From: Dubosiella newyorkensis
GTDB lineage: Bacteria > Bacillota_I > Bacilli_A > Erysipelotrichales > Erysipelotrichaceae
Length of the DNA stretch: 32,000 nucleotides
Reading direction: 5' to 3'
Assembly: GCF_001945605.1 (NCBI RefSeq)
Contig: NZ_MPKA01000139.1
Coordinates: forward strand, 30,001 to 62,000
In this document: piece after piece, positions 2 to 12,136 of the stretch
Position numbering within the stretch: the first letter of the stretch is position 1
Layout of the letters: every line of letters begins with the position of its first letter
Program-made: the position numbers and the translations under genes
The notes under the pieces: model-generated
The model's database searches: none
What the model was told of the DNA's origin: nothing
What the model saw: only the letters and a program-made list of their open reading frames with translations

Positions 2-1081
<1,080 letters not shown>

Positions 1082-2546: not shown

Positions 2547-3916
2547 ATGGGTTTGGCAGCATTGGCGCCATGGGTCGCAGGCTTTATTTTTTGTGTTCAT
2601 GTTTATCCTTGTGATCACGGAAAAGTTTGAACGTCACATCGTTACTTTAGGGTGTGGGGAGGCTGTCTTGGTGATCGTGTTTGGCTTTTGTTTGCGCTCG
2701 TGGCAGGCGGCATGGTATACGCTAAACATTCAAAATATCTTTACTTTAGATTTCTGGTATTCGGCATCTGAAAGTGCCAAGTCTTCTTCAGGAATCAACT
2801 GGGCGACGATCTTATTCATTGCGGGAATGATGATCATGGTGGAAGGGATAGCTTCGGCTGGTTTCTTTCGTTCGCTTTGTTTGCGGTTTGCGAAACTCGT
2901 CAAGTATCGTTCGACAAGGATTTTTTTTTGTTTTTATGATCATGTCTGCCATCTTGGCGATGTTTATCGATAGTATCACGGTGATCTTGTTTTTGGCGGC
3001 TGTGACTGTCGAGTTGGCGCAGCTTTTGAAATTTGATCCGGTTCCTGTGATCTTGGCGGAGATCTTTTGCGCGAATCTTGGGGGTGCGGCGACGATGTGC
3101 GGCGATCCGCCTAACATTATTATCGGAACGGCTTTAGGCTATTCTTTTTCTGATTTTATAAACAATACGGGGATGATCGCTGGAATTTCGCTGTTCTTTG
3201 TCGTACTCTACTTTTGGTTTTGTTTTGCGAAGAAATTAAAAAAGAGCGAAGCGTATTTAGAACAGATCGACTCTTTTCCAGATCCATCTCAAGCGATCTT
3301 GAATAGGATGTGTTTTATTCAATCGACTTTGATTTTTTTGCTTGCGATCGTTTTGCTTGTTTCGCATGCGTATACGCATTTGACGGTCGCTTTTATTGGT
3401 GTGTTCATCGCTTTGCTCACATTAGTTTGCGCAGGCTCTCAGGCGAAAGATTTGCTGAAACAAGTCGACTATAAGACGTTGTTGTTTTTTGTGGGGTTGT
3501 TCGTGGTCGTTGGCGGTTTGGAAGAAACGGGTGTTCTAGAAATCGTGGCGGAATGGATTGCAAATTGGTCGAATGGAAATATTTATTTGATGGTTTTGGT
3601 CATTTTATGGGTTTCTGCTGTGGCTAGCGCGGTCGTTGATAATATTCCGTTTGCGGCGACGATGATTCCGATCATTCGGATGTTGGCGCAAAGTCAATCG
3701 GTTCCTTTGACGACATTGGCTTGGACGTTGTCGATGGGTACGGATGTTGGTGGTTCTGCCACGCCGATTGGCGCAAGCGCCAATGTGGTGGGCACGGCTG
3801 TGGCGATGAAGGCGGGTTATCCGATCTCATGGGGAAAATATTGTAGATATTGTGTGACGGCGACGTTGCTTGTGGTCATGATTTCGATGGTTTGTATTTT
3901 TGTGCGGTATGTGTAG
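2547..3916 (+). pseudogene. ArsB/NhaD-superfamily (anion/citrate-transporter-like) permease, reading frame broken twice at homopolymers
   Basis: SD AAGGAAGGAAAG precedes ATG 2547 (MGLAALAPWVAGFIF...), which stops after 27 codons. The frame continues at +1 after T6 (2587-2592) as VFMFILVITEKFERH... It shifts +1 again at T9 (2921-2929) into ...IMSAILAMFIDSITVILFLAAV...ANLGGAATMCGDPPNIIIG..., ending at 3916. The joined product is ~455 aa with the family's typical layout. Confidence 0.7.
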
Positions 3917-3928
3917 AGGGAAGAGACT

Positions 3929-4517
3929 ATGATTATAACGATTTCAAGAGAGTTTGGTAGTGGGGGTCGGGATATTTCGCGGGCATTGGCTGCCCATTAT
4001 GATGTGCCGTTGTATGATCAAAATATGTTGAGCGAGATCGGGATCGATGAGAGTTATGATATCGACCGGATCAATCAATACGATGAGGCGCCTCGTTGGA
4101 TGATCCGTTCTCGAACGGTTCGGGGGTTGACGAATTCGAATATCGACAATATCGCGATGAAGGAGTTTGACTTTTTGCGCGAGAAGGCGAGGGTCAAAGA
4201 ATCGTTTATCGTTCTTGGTCATTGTGGGGAAAGCATTTTGAAAGAATATGATCCGATTTCGATTTTTGTGAACGCGAGCATGGATTTGCGGATCGAGCGG
4301 ACGATGCAAGAGTTTGAACTCGATGAAAAAGAGGCGTATGCGCTGACCAAAAAAAACGGATCGCAATCGCAAGATGTATCATAATTACTATTGCGACAAT
4401 AAATGGGATGATTCTCGGTATTATGATTTGTGTATCGAGTCTTCGACGCTTGGGGTGGACGAAACGATCGATTTTTTGATCGATTTTATTGACCGTTGTA
4501 TCGAAGCAAGAAAATAA
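3929..4517 (+). pseudogene. Cytidylate kinase-like family protein (AAA/P-loop-like), frameshifted at an A8 run
   Basis: N-terminus MIITISREFGSGGRDISRALA is typical of the family. The ORF stops at 4384, but the +1 frame after A8 (4349-4356) reads KKTDRNRKMYHNYYCDNKWDDSRYYDLCIESSTLGVDETIDFL..., the conserved C-terminus. Stop TAA 4515-4517. Confidence 0.75.
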
Positions 4518-4560
4518 AAAAACATAATTATAAAAAAATGAATCAATCTTTTCGGATATG

Positions 4561-4569
4561 TGCTATAAT
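4561..4569 (+). promoter_or_regulatory. Extended -10 promoter element (TGCTATAAT)
   Basis: Exact TGnTATAAT at 4561-4569, about 34 nt upstream of ATG 4603. The -35 is weak. Confidence 0.5.
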
Positions 4570-4602
4570 TTGTAAAACAAGCGCTTACAAGAAAGGTACA
4601 TT

Positions 4603-4695
4603 ATGGAAAGATTGACAGAAAAAAAGGGAACTACGGCCGAAAAAACGGTCATTCTTGGTCTGCTTATGATCGCATTGGTCTTAGCGAGCCTGTAA
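4603..4695 (+). CDS. Small hydrophobic peptide, 30 aa (MERLTEKKGTTAEKTVILGLLMIALVLASL)
   Basis: Below the ORF-track size cutoff. Has SD GAAAGG 4591-4596 at good spacing, its own extended -10 promoter upstream, and an intrinsic terminator starting 9 nt after the stop. Polar N-half, single TM-like C-half. Confidence 0.4.
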   Translation: MERLTEKKGTTAEKTVILGLLMIALVLASL

Positions 4696-4703
4696 AATGG
4701 AAA

Positions 4704-4731
4704 GTCATGCTCAATGATGCATGGCTTTTTT
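4704..4731 (+). terminator. Rho-independent terminator / possible attenuator
   Basis: 7-bp stem GTCATGC (4704-4710) / GCATGGC (4719-4725) with one G-U pair, 8-nt loop, T6 at 4726-4731. Confidence 0.7.
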
Positions 4732-4760
4732 CAAGAATAGAAGAGATAGAAAGGATGAAT

Positions 4761-5789
4761 ATGAAGAAATCAAAAAAATGGATCGTATGGACGATCATGA
4801 TAGTTTTCGTTGTTGGCTGCTTGATCATTTTTGTTCCGAATAAAAAAGAAGTGGTGCACGATGACTTTGATTTTTGGAAAGAAACGTATGATATTCTTGC
4901 CAAGAAAATCGGTGGGCTTAAATTTGAGGACGCCTCTTGGAAGATCGTCTTGCAGGATCGAAAGAATGCAGTGGAGGCGGAATATCCTGGTCTTTTGATC
5001 CAATATGCAGAAGACGAAAACGATCGCCAGACGAAAACGAGCTTGAGCATGAATGAAGATTCCTCAAAGGATAAAGCGGTTGAATTCGTGTATGAGGTCA
5101 GCGAATTCGATGGAGACAATTTAAAGGCGGAGAAAGAATTTGTGTTGCGCTCCACCGACTATAAAGCTGAACAATTTAAGACGATTTATCGGGTGTATGA
5201 GTATCTGAATGGCGTGTTTGATCGTACGGATACCAAGGAAGGGTCTTTGACGATCCATGGAAATGAGGTCGATTATGACGAGCTTCCCTTGATGAAGGAG
5301 GCATTTGAGCACTTCGATCTTTTACTTGAAAATATGGAAAACGAGTTTGGTGTTTCTTATGAGGGAACAAATTTTATCGGTGTTCCTACGATCGAGTTTT
5401 CGAAAGAGATAGCGCAGGATATTCAGTCGAAAGATTATTTTAGTGAAGTCCACTATAACGCGAAAGGGTATGGGATCGTGACGTTTTTGATGGTTGACGA
5501 GGATGAAAAGGTGGCTTCGTATGGCACCTATGATGTCACGCGTCAAGGATATGGATTCCGGTATGATATGGCTTTAGTGCCACGGACGATAGAACAATGT
5601 TTTGATTTGGAAACACCAGCGGATATTGAAAAAGAAATGGTTTATTTTGATGGCGAAAGAGCGTATATTTATCCCGCTGATTGGAGAGATGAGGATATTC
5701 TTTCGGATGTAAATCAAGGAGCAGAGAACGCGGTGGCTGTATTAAGTACGCAAAATAAAAGCTATACTGATTATGAAAGAATCCCCTAA
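4761..5789 (+). CDS. Hypothetical membrane-anchored (signal-anchor or lipoprotein-like) protein
   Basis: ORF-track frame 4707-5789. The 4707 start lies inside the terminator hairpin. ATG 4761 follows AAGGA (4751-4755). N-terminus is MKKSKKWIVWTIMIVFVVGCLIIFVP (basic n-region plus hydrophobic helix, possible lipobox VVGC). The rest is acidic and soluble, with no family recognised. Confidence 0.7.
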   Translation: MKKSKKWIVWTIMIVFVVGCLIIFVPNKKEVVHDDFDFWKETYDILAKKIGGLKFEDASWKIVLQDRKNAVEAEYPGLLIQYAEDENDRQTKTSLSMNEDSSKDKAVEFVYEVSEFDGDNLKAEKEFVLRSTDYKAEQFKTIYRVYEYLNGVFDRTDTKEGSLTIHGNEVDYDELPLMKEAFEHFDLLLENMENEFGVSYEGTNFIGVPTIEFSKEIAQDIQSKDYFSEVHYNAKGYGIVTFLMVDEDEKVASYGTYDVTRQGYGFRYDMALVPRTIEQCFDLETPADIEKEMVYFDGERAYIYPADWRDEDILSDVNQGAENAVAVLSTQNKSYTDYERIP

Positions 5790-5970
5790 AAATCTGGGTC
5801 GCTAAAAAACATTCTCATCAGGAAATGTGCCAGTTGATCGCATGATTTTCTGGCATTTCATATTTATACCCTATGCATGAGAGGTTGTTTTTATTCCTAA
5901 GACGTAGCTTTTCATTCTGTCTAATATTTGTTACTCTAATAATAAACAAAAATTAGAAAGGGCTTAAAAT

Positions 5971-6681
5971 ATGAAAATATTAATCTGTGATAACAATCCT
6001 GATGATATTCATCATCTATCCCATTTACTTAACGAGTATTGCGAGTATAGACAACTTGTGATTCAAGACATAAAGATTTGTCATCATTCAAATGAAGTAT
6101 TCCGTTCAATTCAGGATTGTGATCTCTTATTTCTGGATGTTGAATTAGATGACGAAAACGGAATTGATATAGGGATGCAGATCAAAACAATGAATTGTCG
6201 CATTAGGATCATTATCACATCTGCTTTTCAGGATTATCTAATTGCCGGATATAAAATCAACGCTTGTCGTTATTTACTTAAGCCGATAGAAAAAATTGAA
6301 TTTTTTATCGAAATGGATTCGATCATGAATGATTATTTTAAAAATCAGCAGGGATTTTATGAAAGAACAATTCAGCCAGGAAAGATTTTTTATCATCAGA
6401 TTCTTTTTATTGAAGCATATAATCGAAAAACACAGATCACATTAGAAAACGGAAAATCAGGTATCGTGAAGCATTCATTATCCGAGTGGATCGAAATACT
6501 AAAAGAACAGCCTTTTGATCAATCCCATAAGTCTGTTGTTGTCAATTTCAAAGCAATCCAAACAATTGGTAAACAGGACATTTATTTACACAATGGACAA
6601 ACCGTTCCGGTTTCGCGCCATTATCGAAAAAGCTTTTTGCAGAACTATATCAACTATTTACAATGCGAGGATTACGAATGA
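5971..6681 (+). CDS. LytTR-family (LytR/AlgR-type) response regulator
   Basis: Receiver domain with acceptor Asp in LLFLDVELDD, IIITSAF and YLLKP. C-terminal LytTR domain (ILFIEAYNRKTQITLENG...SHKSVVVNFKAIQTI...VPVSRHYRKSF). SD AGAAAGGG lies upstream. Confidence 0.9.
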   Translation: MKILICDNNPDDIHHLSHLLNEYCEYRQLVIQDIKICHHSNEVFRSIQDCDLLFLDVELDDENGIDIGMQIKTMNCRIRIIITSAFQDYLIAGYKINACRYLLKPIEKIEFFIEMDSIMNDYFKNQQGFYERTIQPGKIFYHQILFIEAYNRKTQITLENGKSGIVKHSLSEWIEILKEQPFDQSHKSVVVNFKAIQTIGKQDIYLHNGQTVPVSRHYRKSFLQNYINYLQCEDYE

Positions 6682-7916
6682 TATTTTTATTTTTGTTCAA
6701 CACTATTTATCTAGTCATAGCTTTTTATATAGGAAAAGAAATTATATCCGCAAGCATTTCTATAAAAAAGAACAGATTGTTTCTTATAGGGTTGTGGTTA
6801 TTCTTGAATTTGGGAAATATTCCTATGTTTAGCTCCTGGAACGAAATCTTGGTTTTTTTTGCTTCGATTGCCTTATACCGCTTTCTGTTTAAACTTCCAT
6901 GGTCAAAAGTTGTTCCTATTGCTTTTTGCTTTTTTTCAATCGCAAGTATTACAAAATATATTGGTGGATTATTATCTATATTCGAGATGTCTTTTAATGC
7001 ACAAAACGAGGTATATACGAATGTATATTTTTTGACGCTCGCTTTGGCGATTCTTACTCTTTGGGGTTTTATAAAAATACTGGTCCATACTTTCCAGTTG
7101 TTTGATCAAAAAGTGCTTCCTTCTTATAGCTGGATTTTTATATTTCTTCCACTCTCTATTTTTGCTTTATTTTTAAACGCAGAAGATTATTTCAAAGTAC
7201 TGGAATCACAACGCATAGTTATCGCACTGTTTCTCATTTTTGTCGTGTCCAATTTCATCTTGTCCTTTTTGCACTCTAAACTTACATCTGTAATGGAAAT
7301 TGAAACCGAACTTGGAATTCAAAAGGAAAAAGAAAAACAGTTACTAAATCAAATAGAATTTTTAAATCAGCAACATAAATTAAACATGTCATTTGTTCAT
7401 GAACTTTTACAAAAAGAGAATAAAATTGTCTCTTTAATAAAAGAAGGGAATGAACGCGAAGCAATATCTACACTAGAATCCTTGGCACAAAATACATTTC
7501 AGGAATTTAATGGAATTCTTACCGAATCAAACGTTTTCAATGCGATCATTACGCAATTCCATCCTCGAATTCATCAGGCAGGATTTCAATTAAGAACGAC
7601 AATTTCGATCAATGATTTTGAATTTATGAATTTATCGGAACAATATGATTTTTTTTATCATTTGATTGATAATCTCCTTCATTGCGCAGAAAAACGAATT
7701 ACTAAAACAGATCAATCAATTATTATCACTTGTAAACGCAACAAATCTTTTCGTAAAATTGAATGCTTCATTCCGTTATCCACTCAAAACTTCGATTGTG
7801 ATTTTGATGATAATTTTGCTTCTAAATATCATTTAAAAATACAGCATCAAAAACTGGAAGAGTATAAAAAAGAAAAAATAGAATTGTTATTGAGCGATTT
7901 ACAACCTGTTAAGTAA
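6678..7916 (+). CDS. HPK10/SpoOB-type membrane sensor histidine kinase homologue with degenerate ATP-binding domain
   Basis: ATGA start/stop overlap with the regulator (ATG 6678, TGA 6679-6681), GAGG SD at 6667-6670. About 6 predicted TM helices, a coiled linker, H-box-like SFVHELLQ and N-box-like LIDNLLHCAEK. The last ~110 residues contain no glycine. Confidence 0.8.
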   Translation: MIFLFLFNTIYLVIAFYIGKEIISASISIKKNRLFLIGLWLFLNLGNIPMFSSWNEILVFFASIALYRFLFKLPWSKVVPIAFCFFSIASITKYIGGLLSIFEMSFNAQNEVYTNVYFLTLALAILTLWGFIKILVHTFQLFDQKVLPSYSWIFIFLPLSIFALFLNAEDYFKVLESQRIVIALFLIFVVSNFILSFLHSKLTSVMEIETELGIQKEKEKQLLNQIEFLNQQHKLNMSFVHELLQKENKIVSLIKEGNEREAISTLESLAQNTFQEFNGILTESNVFNAIITQFHPRIHQAGFQLRTTISINDFEFMNLSEQYDFFYHLIDNLLHCAEKRITKTDQSIIITCKRNKSFRKIECFIPLSTQNFDCDFDDNFASKYHLKIQHQKLEEYKKEKIELLLSDLQPVK

Positions 7917-8052
7917 AATAAGTACCTGTTGTTCCTGATTGCTGGATATAAATAAATAGTCATTTATAATAGATTTAACAAATAATTATTTGGATAACAG
8001 AAAATCTCTCATACCGGTTTCAGAGATCCATAGTTAGAAAAGGAAAGCTATT

Positions 8053-8579
8053 ATGAATACTATAAAAAAATAAGTCAAATAATCATAACTACTATTTTTT
8101 GTGTTTCTCTTAGTTCCGAACATATTTTTGCAACCGAAAGGGTAGATCCTGAAGTTTCAGATAATCCGGAAACTTCCACAAACGCAGAACCATATAATGA
8201 AGACACGAGAATGTATTCATTGGATGAATATATGAAAACATTTTCTCAGGATATGTCTTCCAATGAAATAATCTTGCCTGACTATTCATCTTTGGATTTA
8301 GGTCTCGCACCATTGAGTTATTTACGCTATACTTCCTATATCTATGATGCGAGCGGCAATCAACTTGGTACAGTTACACTCGATGCAGAAACCGCAATAA
8401 TTGGTGGAAGACCACAATTCGTATATGATAAGTGTTACTTAGGTCATCCATCTGCTTATAACGGATGGCCTTGCGTAGACTCAAGTCTATCTTTCTCGGG
8501 AGACCGAATTGTTGTTTATGCTACATTCTCAAATGGATATTTTCAACAAAGCGGTTCAGCTGTATTTTATCCTCAATAA
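8053..8579 (+). pseudogene. Secreted hypothetical protein (~175 aa if repaired), broken at an A7 run
   Basis: SD AAAGGAAAG precedes ATG 8053, giving MNTIKK then TAA. Adding one A to A7 (8064-8070) joins it to the frame of ORF 8211-8579. The joined product starts MNTIKKISQIIITTIFCVSLSSEHIFA/TERVDPE..., a classic signal peptide with an IFA cleavage-like site. The frame is open from 8070. Confidence 0.55.
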
Positions 8580-8615
8580 ATCGTACTTCTCTAATAAATA
8601 AGATAAATTTAATCA

Positions 8616-8777
8616 ATGAAAACTAAAAAGCATATTTTTGCTATTCTTATTTTCATCCTGATTATCGTGGGAATCTTAGCAGGTTATTTTCGTTCCTTTC
8701 AAAATACCCAAAGTATAGATGATCAGAAAATGTATACCCTTGATGAGTATCAGGAAAAATTTGACCATAGCAAATGA
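8616..8777 (+). CDS. 53-aa membrane/secreted mini-paralogue of the upstream gene
   Basis: MKTKKHIFAILIFILIIVGILAGYFRSFQNTQSIDDQKMYTLDEYQEKFDHSK. Shares the M-x-T-x-KK plus hydrophobic N-terminus and the motif MY[ST]LDEY-x2-[KT]F with the 8053 gene, and the similarity is visible at nucleotide level. No clear SD. Confidence 0.4.
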   Translation: MKTKKHIFAILIFILIIVGILAGYFRSFQNTQSIDDQKMYTLDEYQEKFDHSK

Positions 8778-8792
8778 AAAGATCTTCAAAAG

Positions 8793-8819
8793 AATCGGCC
8801 TATCCCCGGTCGATTTTTT
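8793..8819 (+). terminator. Rho-independent terminator
   Basis: AATCGGCC (8793-8800) / GGTCGATT (8808-8815) with one G-U pair, and a T-run at 8814-8819. Confidence 0.6.
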
Positions 8820-9276
8820 AATTCGAAAATAGGAGGTGGCTACCCTATATTGAACACCACTGCTCTTGTATTTACGGAGATTCCTTTTTCAAAAAGAAAA
8901 GCAGGCAGTCTGATCAATTCTTCCAAAGGCAAGATTTATATCCACAATCACGCGGATCTTGAACGGGTCAGAATGATCCTGTCCTGTTTGTGAAATGTAT
9001 TTGAAGTCTGGTTTTACCGAAATGCGCAAAGGGATCAACAAATACTTTAAATGGTAAACGTTGCTTTTAGCCCAGCCGACCTGCATAGACAGTAAATGTA
9101 GGAGTCATGTTCATCCCAAGTTCTTTGCAGACAGTCGATGTAGCCATTTTTACTCATCATTTTCAACGATTCTTCTCTCCTAGCTTGGCGGCTTCTATTT
9201 AGAATCCTTAAGCATCTATCATGCGTTTTTCTTAAAAACTTTCTACAATAGAAATAGAACAAAGGAGAATAAGAAT

Positions 9277-12009: not shown

Positions 12010-12130
12010 AAAAAAACACCTCCGTTTACGAGGCGTAGGAAAAAAATAGAGACTCCCTACGCTAGTATTATCTAGATCAGGTCGAAGGGACCGCATACGC
12101 ATCTCAGCCTTTCGGCGCCCCTGTCTTGAC
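12010..12130 (-). promoter_or_regulatory. TPP (THI-box) riboswitch with SD-containing terminator/sequestor hairpin
   Basis: Minus strand reads AGACAGGGGCGCCGAAAGGCTGAGATGCGTATGCGGTCCCTTCGAACCTGATCTAGATAATACTAGCGTAGGGAGTCT. P1 is AGAC/GTCT, and CTGAGA and ACCTGATCTAGATAATACTAGCGTAGGGA are the conserved THI-box cores. The downstream hairpin ACGCCTC/GAGGTGT contains the GGAGG SD and is followed by a T-run and the ATG. Confidence 0.9.
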
Positions 12131-12136
12131 ACGAAC

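Follow-up and report, generated by a model that had tools for sequence, protein, structure and literature searches.

How can an agr-type sensing system operate when its receptor lacks the motifs for ATP binding and the genes for a signal are not beside it? The agr system is the textbook case of quorum sensing in Gram-positive bacteria, and autophosphorylation of its receptor AgrC is assumed to power the pathway. The question is raised by a block of approximately 3 kb in Dubosiella newyorkensis, located at positions 5826-8820 of a 32,000-nucleotide stretch of contig NZ_MPKA01000139.1 (positions 30,001 to 62,000), hereafter called the window. An earlier reading made from the letters alone (the sequence-only reading) had described this block as an AT-rich island, possibly of foreign origin, with a LytTR regulator, an AgrC-like sensor and two downstream genes for secreted or membrane proteins. 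Here, the block is compared with its copies in Erysipelotrichaceae bacterium OPF54 (locus L008), which is a second species of Dubosiella, and in a metagenomic relative of OPF54 (L001); other loci are likewise cited by their L numbers. The interpretation that we favour, while giving it slightly less than an even chance, is that of a stripped agr-type sensing arm that would drive a slippage-gated secreted effector, here called the cargo, and the tethered partner of this effector. The features of the block and its right border are as follows.

5826-8820, + strand: AT-rich module with regulator, receptor, cargo, small peptide and terminator
5826-5970, + strand: conserved upstream region at the left end of the homology with the sister copies, 88% identical to L001 (from 5825) and L008 (from 5856)
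5971-6681, + strand: LytTR-family response regulator of 236 residues (Pfam Response_reg 5.6e-11, LytTR 3e-16)
6678-7916, + strand: AgrC-fold polytopic membrane receptor of 412 residues, with an invariant His241 and a C-terminal alpha/beta domain without N, G1 and G2 motifs
7917-8052, + strand: intergenic control region of 136 nt, kept in L001 and L008
8053-8073, + strand: cargo start in frame 0, with ATG, five codons (MNTIKK) and TAA at 8071-8073
8070-8579, + strand: remainder of the cargo in the -1 frame, with the h- and c-regions of the signal peptide, an acidic linker, the motif MYSLDEYMKTF and a C-terminal domain of ~95 residues
8616-8777, + strand: membrane-anchored peptide of 53 residues; signal anchor at the N-terminus, cargo motif repeated in the exposed C-terminal tail, DDQKMYTLDEYQEKFDHSK
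8794-8820, + strand: intrinsic-terminator-like hairpin and T-run at the right end of the homology with the sister copies
8850-9057, + strand: decayed fragment of an IS66-family insertion sequence (IS), just outside the island, of which the C-terminal portion of orf1 and the initial 20 codons of orf2/TnpB are left

An AT-rich module at different sites in two Dubosiella species

The G+C content of the island is 31.7%, against 43.8% in the remaining window, and it falls to 26-34% in 400-nt windows at ~5600-8800. Windows of 3 kb outside the island have a mean of 44.3% with a standard deviation of 2.1 and a minimum of 40.1, which places the island about 6 standard deviations away. The sharp drop reported by the sequence-only reading is thus present in a sliding-window calculation, on a backbone that is lower than the 45-53% given there. 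The G+C content at third codon positions (GC3) is 28-31% in the regulator and receptor genes versus 56% in PolC, so the amino acid composition of the encoded proteins does not explain the low G+C content.

The region 5856-8820 aligns with OPF54 at 87% identity with one 1-base gap, and 5825-8057 and 8616-8820 align with L001. The flanks of the block in L008 and L001 are unrelated to those in the window, thus the chromosomal site differs, and homology ends sharply, on the left at 5825 (L001) or 5856 (L008) and on the right at 8820. The OPF54 block has a G+C content of 32.7% within DNA of 48-50%. The same block at another locus of the sister species, again AT-rich, supports the suggested foreign, or mobile, character. 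Directly outside the right border lies the IS66 fragment, which shows protein matches with E-values of 9e-11 and 2e-5 and a 38-nt match to the IS66 element adjoining the L008 island. The OPF54 element is intact (orf1, TnpB_IS66, DDE_Tnp_IS66) and abuts the left end, so that IS66 is found at one island border in both species. The earlier statement that neither an integrase nor a transposase marks the borders therefore holds for the integrase and is wrong for the transposase, because the IS66 remnant adjoins the right border. Neither an integrase nor a tRNA gene was found at the borders, and a search of the island ends for target-site duplications and inverted repeats gave only 8-mers at chance level.

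A deviant composition, a different insertion site in a relative and an IS66 element at one border in each species are found together here, as is usual for genomic islands, and judged from these comparisons 5826-8820 is a self-contained AT-rich accessory module of Dubosiella that moves as a unit. It is very doubtful that the block is native, with a low G+C content that merely reflects AT-rich core genes for membrane and secreted proteins which were rearranged between the species. The borders without integrase, tRNA or target-site duplication would suit such an origin, as would the fact that both Dubosiella species carry the block and that its two copies may have diverged no more than is usual in this genus, but it is contradicted by the low GC3 of regulator and receptor relative to PolC, by homology that ends sharply inside unrelated flanks, by the IS66 element at a border in both species, and by the mobile setting (IS elements, plasmids, conjugative elements) in which relatives of both module halves are found.

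Between the two Dubosiella species, the ratio of non-synonymous to synonymous substitution rates (dN/dS) is 0.09 for the regulator, 0.13 for the receptor and 0.21 for the small open reading frame (ORF) at a dS of ~0.5. Together with the values for the cargo given below, this indicates that all four module genes are under purifying selection.

In one metagenomic strain (L019), island homology begins at the equivalent of ~8017 and is preceded by an IS256-type transposase (Transposase_mut/MULE), so that regulator and receptor are displaced from the cargo by this insertion. Several further contigs break inside the receptor gene. A protein of 360 residues encoded at 4707-5789 was considered as a module member and rejected, as the copies in the sister species have an unrelated neighbour of 555 residues at this place. 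Its product has a lipoprotein-like N-terminus (..FVVGC) and no family match, and the gene lies in a smaller dip in G+C content (35-39% at 4200-4800).

An AgrC-fold receptor without ATP-binding motifs and its LytTR regulator

The receptor has no match in Pfam or NCBIfam at E<=1, HATPase_c and HATPase_c_5 included, and no match in PDB by sequence; its name in UniRef (NatK C-terminal domain) indicates that another profile version detects a remote similarity. A HMMER scan of 1.84 billion representative proteins yielded 124 relatives, nearly all of 400-420 residues. When 71 of these were aligned, His241 (FVHELL; family consensus FLHDLLH) was the only invariant residue. The few canonical kinases in the alignment carry NLLDNAIEA and HGxG; the remaining proteins, including that of the window, lack both, and HATPase_c_5 is matched by only 8 of the 71. 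The sole glycine after residue 300 of the window protein lies in QAGF, right where that stretch begins, and HGxG is absent, while the asparagine of the N-box is not kept even in relatives of 39-43% identity. The loss of the ATP site is common to most of the ~120 detectable relatives, and the family without it comprises at least 60 clusters at 50% identity. As judged from this distribution, the loss is an old, family-wide (ancestral) trait and not a local decay.

A structure model built by AlphaFold2 with the alignment of relatives reached a predicted local distance difference test (pLDDT) score of 87; a single-sequence run reached 54 and was not usable. The model consists of seven membrane helices, a long helix of the dimerization and histidine phosphotransfer (DHp) type and a small alpha/beta domain, with helices at residues 2-23, 33-45, 53-70, 75-104, 115-144, 149-166 and 171-255. 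Its best PDB match is the cytoplasmic module of Staphylococcus aureus AgrC (6e52), followed by DesK and other kinases, with Spo0B (1f51) at rank 37. When held against the HPK10/AgrC type of histidine kinase, the polytopic sensor part and the DHp histidine are present and the GHKL boxes N, G1 and G2 are absent. These data bear out both that the sensor is AgrC-like and that it looks catalytically dead, with the histidine retained.

Relatives of the receptor at 43% and 27% identity are encoded in operons of the order AgrB, regulator, sensor, and the locus of the 27% relative has a convincing AgrD-like ORF of 47 residues (..NSSCTLMLGQSKEPE..) nearby. This ORF, at 142-285 (- strand) of L037 (MKKINRLILNSFVFVLTALTVFTVNSSCTLMLGQSKEPESLKRFKNI), has the look of an AgrD precursor, with a leader, a ring of Cys+4 and an EP tail, and adjoins genes for a helix-turn-helix protein, AgrB, a LytTR regulator and a receptor relative without ATP site. 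Thus, two receptor relatives adjoin AgrB, one of them also an AgrD-like gene, and the window has neither. A tblastn search with two AgrB queries, which covered the window, L008 and L001 and not the remainder of the genome, gave no match; Pfam AgrB was absent among the neighbouring genes, and no AgrD was found in the 32-kb window. Likewise, the searches recovered neither a C39/ABC exporter nor a recognisable family of bacteriocins or immunity proteins, either in the island or elsewhere in the 32 kb. The reported absence of agrBD and of an exporter beside the pair is therefore correct. Of the two options raised before, a stripped-down or a new kind of LytTR system, a stripped-down agr locus fits better, because the dead-looking kinase is ancestral in a family that elsewhere occurs in loci with AgrB, and once with AgrD.

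The regulator matches Response_reg and LytTR above the Pfam gathering scores for both domains, as expected from the sequence-only reading, which had also correctly noted that the regulator comes first and overlaps the receptor gene by ATGA (6678-6681). In an alignment with the partners of related sensors, the receiver domain keeps D56, T83 and K104. Where receivers normally have the acidic pair [DE]-D, it has D7-N8; the asparagine is found in the window, L008, L030 and L033, and a more distant partner, the regulator of L037, has E-D. There are two haplotypes of the regulator in D. newyorkensis, with 19 differing sites of which 10 are non-synonymous, while the same haplotypes differ by only 2-3 synonymous changes each in receptor and cargo. 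At D33, F44, D61 and C99 the window allele is derived relative to the other haplotype and the sister species.

Does the regulator control the cargo? The upstream region 5826-5970 contains a ribosome-binding site (GAAAGGG, 5956-5962) and a weak repeat with a 21-bp period, TTTTTATTC (5888) and TTTTCATTC (5909), which agree at 8/9 positions, a chance-level match. The intergenic region 7917-8052 contains a sigma-70-like site, TGGATA-16-TATAAT (7943-7970), a conserved hairpin in the 5' untranslated region (8004-8027) and a ribosome-binding site, AGGAAAG (8041-8047), and no terminator was predicted between receptor and cargo. Across three lineages, no conserved pair of AgrA-consensus repeats with a 19-23-bp period was present in either promoter region, and a de novo search before the cargo gave only low-complexity, A/T-rich near-repeats (7-8 of 9). 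The paired 9-bp repeats at a 20-21-bp period that had been proposed for both promoters were thus not found; the test was based on the AgrA consensus, and the binding site of this regulator subfamily may differ from it. The terminator that had been placed behind the last gene was recovered as the terminator-like hairpin and T-run at 8794-8820.

Compared to the staphylococcal and clostridial agr systems (AgrB-AgrD-AgrC-AgrA), the module shares the LytTR regulator and the polytopic AgrC-fold receptor, the relatives of which occur with AgrB and once with an AgrD-like gene. It differs in having no agrB or agrD in the window, the regulator first, a receptor without N, G1 and G2, a D-N acidic pair in the regulator and no AgrA-type repeats. 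A sensing arm apart from the signal genes has precedents in RgaS-RgaR of Clostridioides difficile and VirS-VirR of Clostridium perfringens, where the genes for the AgrC-like sensor and the regulator are not linked to the agrBD genes that make the signal, and the pair controls a small regulon by way of direct repeats (PMC10602386). RgaS and RgaR depend on conserved phosphoryl-transfer residues, and RgaS is treated as a kinase (PMC10602386), whereas the receptor of the module lacks the ATP-binding motifs and its genes are adjacent on a mobile block. For a receptor that does not autophosphorylate, precedents are the phosphotransferase Spo0B and the pseudokinase DivL (PMC4211667, 10.1101/812529), which like C. 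difficile PtpA-C are histidine kinase-like proteins without kinase activity. They share with the module receptor a DHp-type helical hairpin followed by a catalytic-like alpha/beta domain without a working ATP site; they are soluble or belong to other kinase subfamilies, whereas the module receptor is of the seven-helix AgrC type and goes with a LytTR regulator.

The receptor gene contains two T8 runs (6853-6860 and 7649-7656). In L011 the first of these is T9, which splits the receptor into 71 + 309 residues, and in L013 an additional A at 7438 splits it into 258 + 144 residues. Many shortened versions (196-368 residues) from D. newyorkensis assemblies are present in NCBI. These splits may reflect a slippage-prone gene, a dispensable gene or assembly errors. 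Within the species, both single-nucleotide polymorphisms (SNPs) in the receptor gene are synonymous (2/2).

The interrupted reading frame of the cargo

An intact gene had been assumed to start at 8053. However, the start reads ATG AAT ACT ATA AAA AAA TAA, and this ORF ends after six codons at a run of seven adenines (A7, 8064-8070), so that the cargo requires either eight adenines (A8) or a -1 shift. Of the two tandem genes for proteins with a signal peptide or membrane segment that were described before, the second, for the membrane-anchored peptide of 53 residues, stands, and the first is not intact in this genome. With A8 the gene encodes a protein of 175 residues with a standard Sec signal peptide (MNTIKK / ISQIIITTIFCVSLSS / EHIFA-TE).

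A7 is present in the window, in 12 D. newyorkensis loci (L011-L022, ~ten distinct contigs) and in the isolate OPF54. In the sister species, A7 (P0248, 143 contigs) and A8 (P0249, 140 contigs) are about equally frequent with an identical protein downstream, and A8 is also found in L010 and L039. The 175-residue protein of the sister species is 89% identical over its full length to the restored cargo. A 175-residue cargo of the D. newyorkensis type was not found among 15 billion proteins, while shortened gene calls of 122 and 115 residues occur on 373 and 234 contigs, respectively. A sequencing error was rejected as the cause, in view of the A7 in 12 loci on about ten distinct contigs and in the isolate genome of the sister species, and these comparisons argue that the length of the A-tract is a genuine polymorphism. 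An alternative start was rejected as well: the -1 frame contains no ATG, GTG or TTG before 8211 in the window, and the TTG start used for a 196-residue gene call in OPF54 lies inside the hairpin of the 5' untranslated region and is not conserved.

Is the interrupted frame still used? Of the three frames over 8070-8579, only the -1 frame is open, and its ratio of non-synonymous to synonymous polymorphism (pN/pS) is the lowest. The part for signal peptide and linker has a dN/dS of 0.20 (P = 7e-4 versus neutrality), and 8211-8579, with a dN/dS of 0.028 at a dS of 0.58 (P = 6e-18), is the most constrained part of the module. All three within-species SNPs in the cargo are synonymous (3/3), and there is no second lesion in the Dubosiella cargo of either species. 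The purifying selection on this frame implies that the cargo protein is made now, or was until very recently. In the human-gut contigs L061-L063, the cargo homologues are, unlike the otherwise clean Dubosiella copy, true pseudogenes, which carry an internal stop and lose the frame on the way from the motif repeats to the core domain.

Homopolymer contingency loci are known from the phase-variable surface and secreted genes of Neisseria, Campylobacter, Helicobacter and Mycoplasma, and A_AAA_AAG sites of -1 frameshifting from dnaX and IS elements. As in the contingency loci, a homopolymer at the 5' end, here at codons 4-6, varies in length among isolates and toggles the frame of an otherwise intact ORF, both lengths being present in the sister species, and as in the frameshift sites the heptamer A_AAA_AAA, found in both species and followed by the TAA of frame 0, fits the rule X_XXY_YYZ. 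The module differs from these examples in that D. newyorkensis has only the out-of-frame length, no stimulatory element is present, and switching is a prediction from tract lengths. We prefer slipped-strand phase variation as the reading of the tract. The main alternative, possible in our view and the less probable of the two, is that A7 is a programmed recoding site, at which -1 ribosomal frameshifting or insertion of one A by RNA polymerase would yield a constitutive low level of cargo with no ON/OFF switch. It would account for the retention of A7 in two species whose DNA differs by 13%, and in all D. newyorkensis assemblies covered, for the heptamer with a stop codon directly behind it, for a shifted product that is the same as the A8-encoded protein, and for the strong purifying selection downstream. 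What it does not account for is the signature of tract-length variation in the sister species, where A8 and A7 are equally common and the flanking protein is the same. Moreover, the region after the slippery site shows no stimulatory RNA structure (fold of 8036-8135 versus shuffled sequences, z = 0.05), and no internal Shine-Dalgarno sequence was detected upstream of it. In-frame runs of A7-A8 also occur in the lysine-rich n-region of three distant homologues (L002 8009, L075 419, L009 9707), so the tract may be incidental; homopolymer switching may be recurrent in the cargo family, or these runs may be a by-product of AAA lysine codons.

The interrupted cargo could also be one of several signs that the whole block is what decay has left of an agr or bacteriocin locus, and no longer has a function. 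There is neither AgrB nor AgrD in the 32 kb, the receptor lacks ATP-binding motifs, its gene is broken in two in L011 (by T8 becoming T9) and in L013, many assemblies have shortened versions of it, the cargo is frameshifted at A7, and insertion sequences have left their marks, with the IS256-type insertion at 8017 in L019 and the IS66 remnant. We nevertheless regard such decay as unlikely, in view of dN/dS values of 0.03-0.2 for the four genes at a dS of ~0.5, with the cargo as the most constrained, of synonymous SNPs in both cargo and receptor, of a degenerate catalytic domain that is family-wide and old, with an invariant histidine, and hence not a recent lesion, and of a cargo that has acquired no second lesion in either species.

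The cargo family, its motif-sharing partner and a possible mode of action

What kind of protein is the cargo? It is predicted to be a Sec-type exported protein of ~17 kDa, with ~150 residues in its mature form and no double-glycine leader. A profile search collected ~90 clusters of homologues, hosted by Allobaculum, [Ruminococcus] torques and other Lachnospiraceae, Hungatella and Anaerosporobacter. Members consist of a signal peptide, 1-4 copies of a motif of ~12 residues and a C-terminal domain of ~95 residues. The motif is [FLM]x[ST][LI]xEYNxxY[SA] in the family and MYSLDEYMKTF in the window cargo, and the C-terminal domain reads ..VGT[IV]TLQYQT.I.GGRPQF.YD.CY...FSGD.I.VY...F.P in the family and GTVTL..T.I.GGRPQFVYD.CY..FSGD.I.VY in the window. 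The cargo has no match in Pfam, NCBIfam, PHROGs or PADLOC, none in a PDB sequence-profile search, and none in PLSDB plasmids or GenBank phages by tblastn; in line with the sequence-only reading, homology searches placed it in no well-characterised family.

The homologues occur in varied contexts, which are accessory and mobile. One follows directly after a lanthipeptide cluster, LanT(C39-ABC)-LanA-LanM, on a conjugative element, another lies behind a LysR gene, and a third forms the one evident payload of a ~7-kb mobilisable replicon (MobC, relaxase). The 14-kb record of [Ruminococcus] torques (L024-L026, CP146723.1) consists of two copies of a ~7-kb unit with genes for a MobC/NikA-like protein, a relaxase, DUF6040 and a cargo homologue of 240 residues with four motif repeats, and probably represents a dimeric assembly of a small plasmid that can be mobilised. 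A complete canonical agr locus, with AgrB, a kinase with HATPase_c_5 and a LytTR regulator, is found 0.8 kb away from the cargo in a group of Clostridia (L065-L069), from which it follows that the association of cargo and LytTR/agr recurs once independently and is not general. At 12 loci (L002, L009, L065-L076), the cargo homologue is directly followed by a double zinc-ribbon protein (DZR/Zn_Ribbon_1) of 105-115 residues with no obvious membrane segment. Such a partner was considered for the window cargo and rejected, as the module has no counterpart.

The partner that is present in the module is the peptide of 53 residues, whose N-terminus forms a long hydrophobic anchor with no site for signal peptidase. 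It shares with the cargo the motif "MY[ST]LDEY..F", and the earlier suggestion that a leader-proximal element links the two downstream genes is in this respect correct. Its tail has the same residues in both species, as all 5 nucleotide changes are synonymous (P = 5e-4), while the middle part varies. A regular-expression search for the motif in the six-frame translation of 554 kb matched only cargo genes or their fragments and the small ORFs, save two isolated chance-like matches. In Allobaculum (L023) and L040, with cargo proteins of 46% and 45% identity, respectively, the cargo is followed by a small lipoprotein-type ORF with MLNLDEYNSVW and LIPISEYNDRF, respectively. The pairing of cargo and motif peptide is thus found in three lineages and beside differing regulators, as the Allobaculum pair adjoins an HTH_3 regulator of 420 residues and the Dubosiella pair the LytTR pair. 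In L001 the cargo is deleted exactly, from ATGAA to ATGAA, which leaves the small gene behind the ribosome-binding site of the cargo. This pattern would be expected of an orphan immunity gene, and other readings of it are possible. The small ORF was rejected as an AgrD, given that it has no ring with Cys or Ser and no EP tail, that there is no AgrB, and that its motif also occurs in the cargo and in the lipoprotein counterparts. That no pheromone or immunity gene is recognisable, as stated before, is true of known families, and may be too strong for this conserved partner under selection.

The shared motif could alternatively mark a signal: an LDEY peptide (MYTLDEYQEKFDHSK would be the candidate), released from the 53-residue precursor and/or the pro-region of the cargo, would be the ligand of the receptor, and the circuit would need no AgrB or ABC exporter. 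The invariant tail of the small protein next to its variable middle part would agree with this idea, as would the 1-4 tandem motif copies in cargo homologues, which resemble a multi-copy peptide precursor, the regulator beside the Allobaculum pair, which has the size of an RRNPP peptide receptor, and L001, which keeps the small ORF directly behind the sensor. We nonetheless consider it improbable that the circuit is self-contained in this way. The motif pair occurs with unrelated regulators or none (LysR, plasmid, conjugative element), so the motif goes with the cargo rather than with the sensor; elsewhere, AgrB and an AgrD-like gene accompany the sensor family, which implies a cyclic peptide as ligand; and the small protein looks like an uncleaved anchor, and is a lipoprotein in relatives, which suggests tethering rather than release.

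In the interpretation that we favour, regulator and receptor would form an agr-type sensing arm that became separated from the signal-producing genes, which may be located elsewhere in the genome or in neighbouring bacteria, or may be lost. The pair would control the operon, with the receptor acting as a phosphotransfer, phosphatase or scaffolding/sequestration partner and most likely not as an autokinase, because ATP cannot be bound in the usual way. Slippage at the A-tract would gate the output of the cargo stochastically, by slipped-strand phase variation or, in D. newyorkensis with its fixed A7, by low-level -1 slippage of ribosome or polymerase. The 53-residue peptide would be the cell-bound partner of the cargo, providing immunity or an anchor by way of the shared LDEY motif. 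Our best guess for the cargo is a secreted competition factor (bacteriocin-like) or a surface-interaction factor, where the former is suggested by genomic context only, namely the lanthipeptide cluster, the agr locus, the mobilisable replicon and the loss of the cargo in L001. A more specific proposal, which we think has little chance of being right in full, is a two-part module for self-recognition or competition, in which the receptor would signal without autophosphorylation, in a reverse or phosphatase-type mode or by direct sequestration, with an altered Mg2+ pocket in the regulator. It would respond to the secreted effector or control it, and the effector, randomised by the A-tract, would be checked by a tethered copy of its own motif, as an 'LDEY' pair of toxin and tether or of ligand and decoy.

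Several observations weigh against the favoured interpretation. Control of the cargo by the regulator is suggested by synteny only, because no LytTR-type repeats precede the cargo gene, and most cargo homologues are not beside a LytTR system. The splitting of the receptor gene by homopolymer indels in some strains suggests that it is dispensable. No A8 has been observed in D. newyorkensis, and a fixed A7 is unusual for a freely switching locus; the slippery site, in turn, has no stimulatory structure behind it. Finally, no similarity of the cargo to any bacteriocin, toxin or adhesin, or to a structure that has been solved, was detected.

Class II bacteriocin loci under LytTR control (ComCDE, BlpRH and PlnABCD type) encode peptides with double-glycine leaders, a C39-ABC exporter and immunity proteins. 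The module resembles them in being strain-variable and associated with mobile elements and in having a LytTR pair beside small secreted products and a small membrane protein downstream, and differs from them by its Sec signal peptide and by the lack of a double-glycine leader, a C39-ABC exporter and a known bacteriocin or immunity family. The ingredients of the module, an agr-like LytTR pair, a genomic islet and a homopolymer switch, are known, and their combination is new. We found no published description of the AgrC-like family without ATP site, of the cargo family or of the motif-sharing tether.

AgrC-fold receptors that have kept the histidine and lost the ATP site, next to LytTR regulators and AgrB, raise the question of how such circuits are powered. 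If the more specific proposal above holds, this family, which often goes with AgrB, would represent an undescribed mode of agr signalling in gut Firmicutes, and the module ties such a receptor to a widespread, uncharacterised family of secreted proteins of the same bacteria that here appears to be homopolymer-gated. D. newyorkensis is an abundant and immunologically active commensal of mice, and a secreted factor whose expression is stochastic could play a part in the competition among strains or in the interaction with the host.

Outside the module, two genes of the window look split. A CitMHS-type transporter gene upstream has overlapping frames at 2593-2973 and 2888-3916, and a cytidylate-kinase-like gene is in two pieces, 3929-4384 and 4374-4517; assembly L006 splits both genes at other points. 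On the other side of the module, a thiamine pyrophosphate (TPP) riboswitch at 12037-12132 (- strand; Rfam RF00059, 68.5 bits) lies upstream of a gene for a ThiT/YuaJ-type thiamine transporter.

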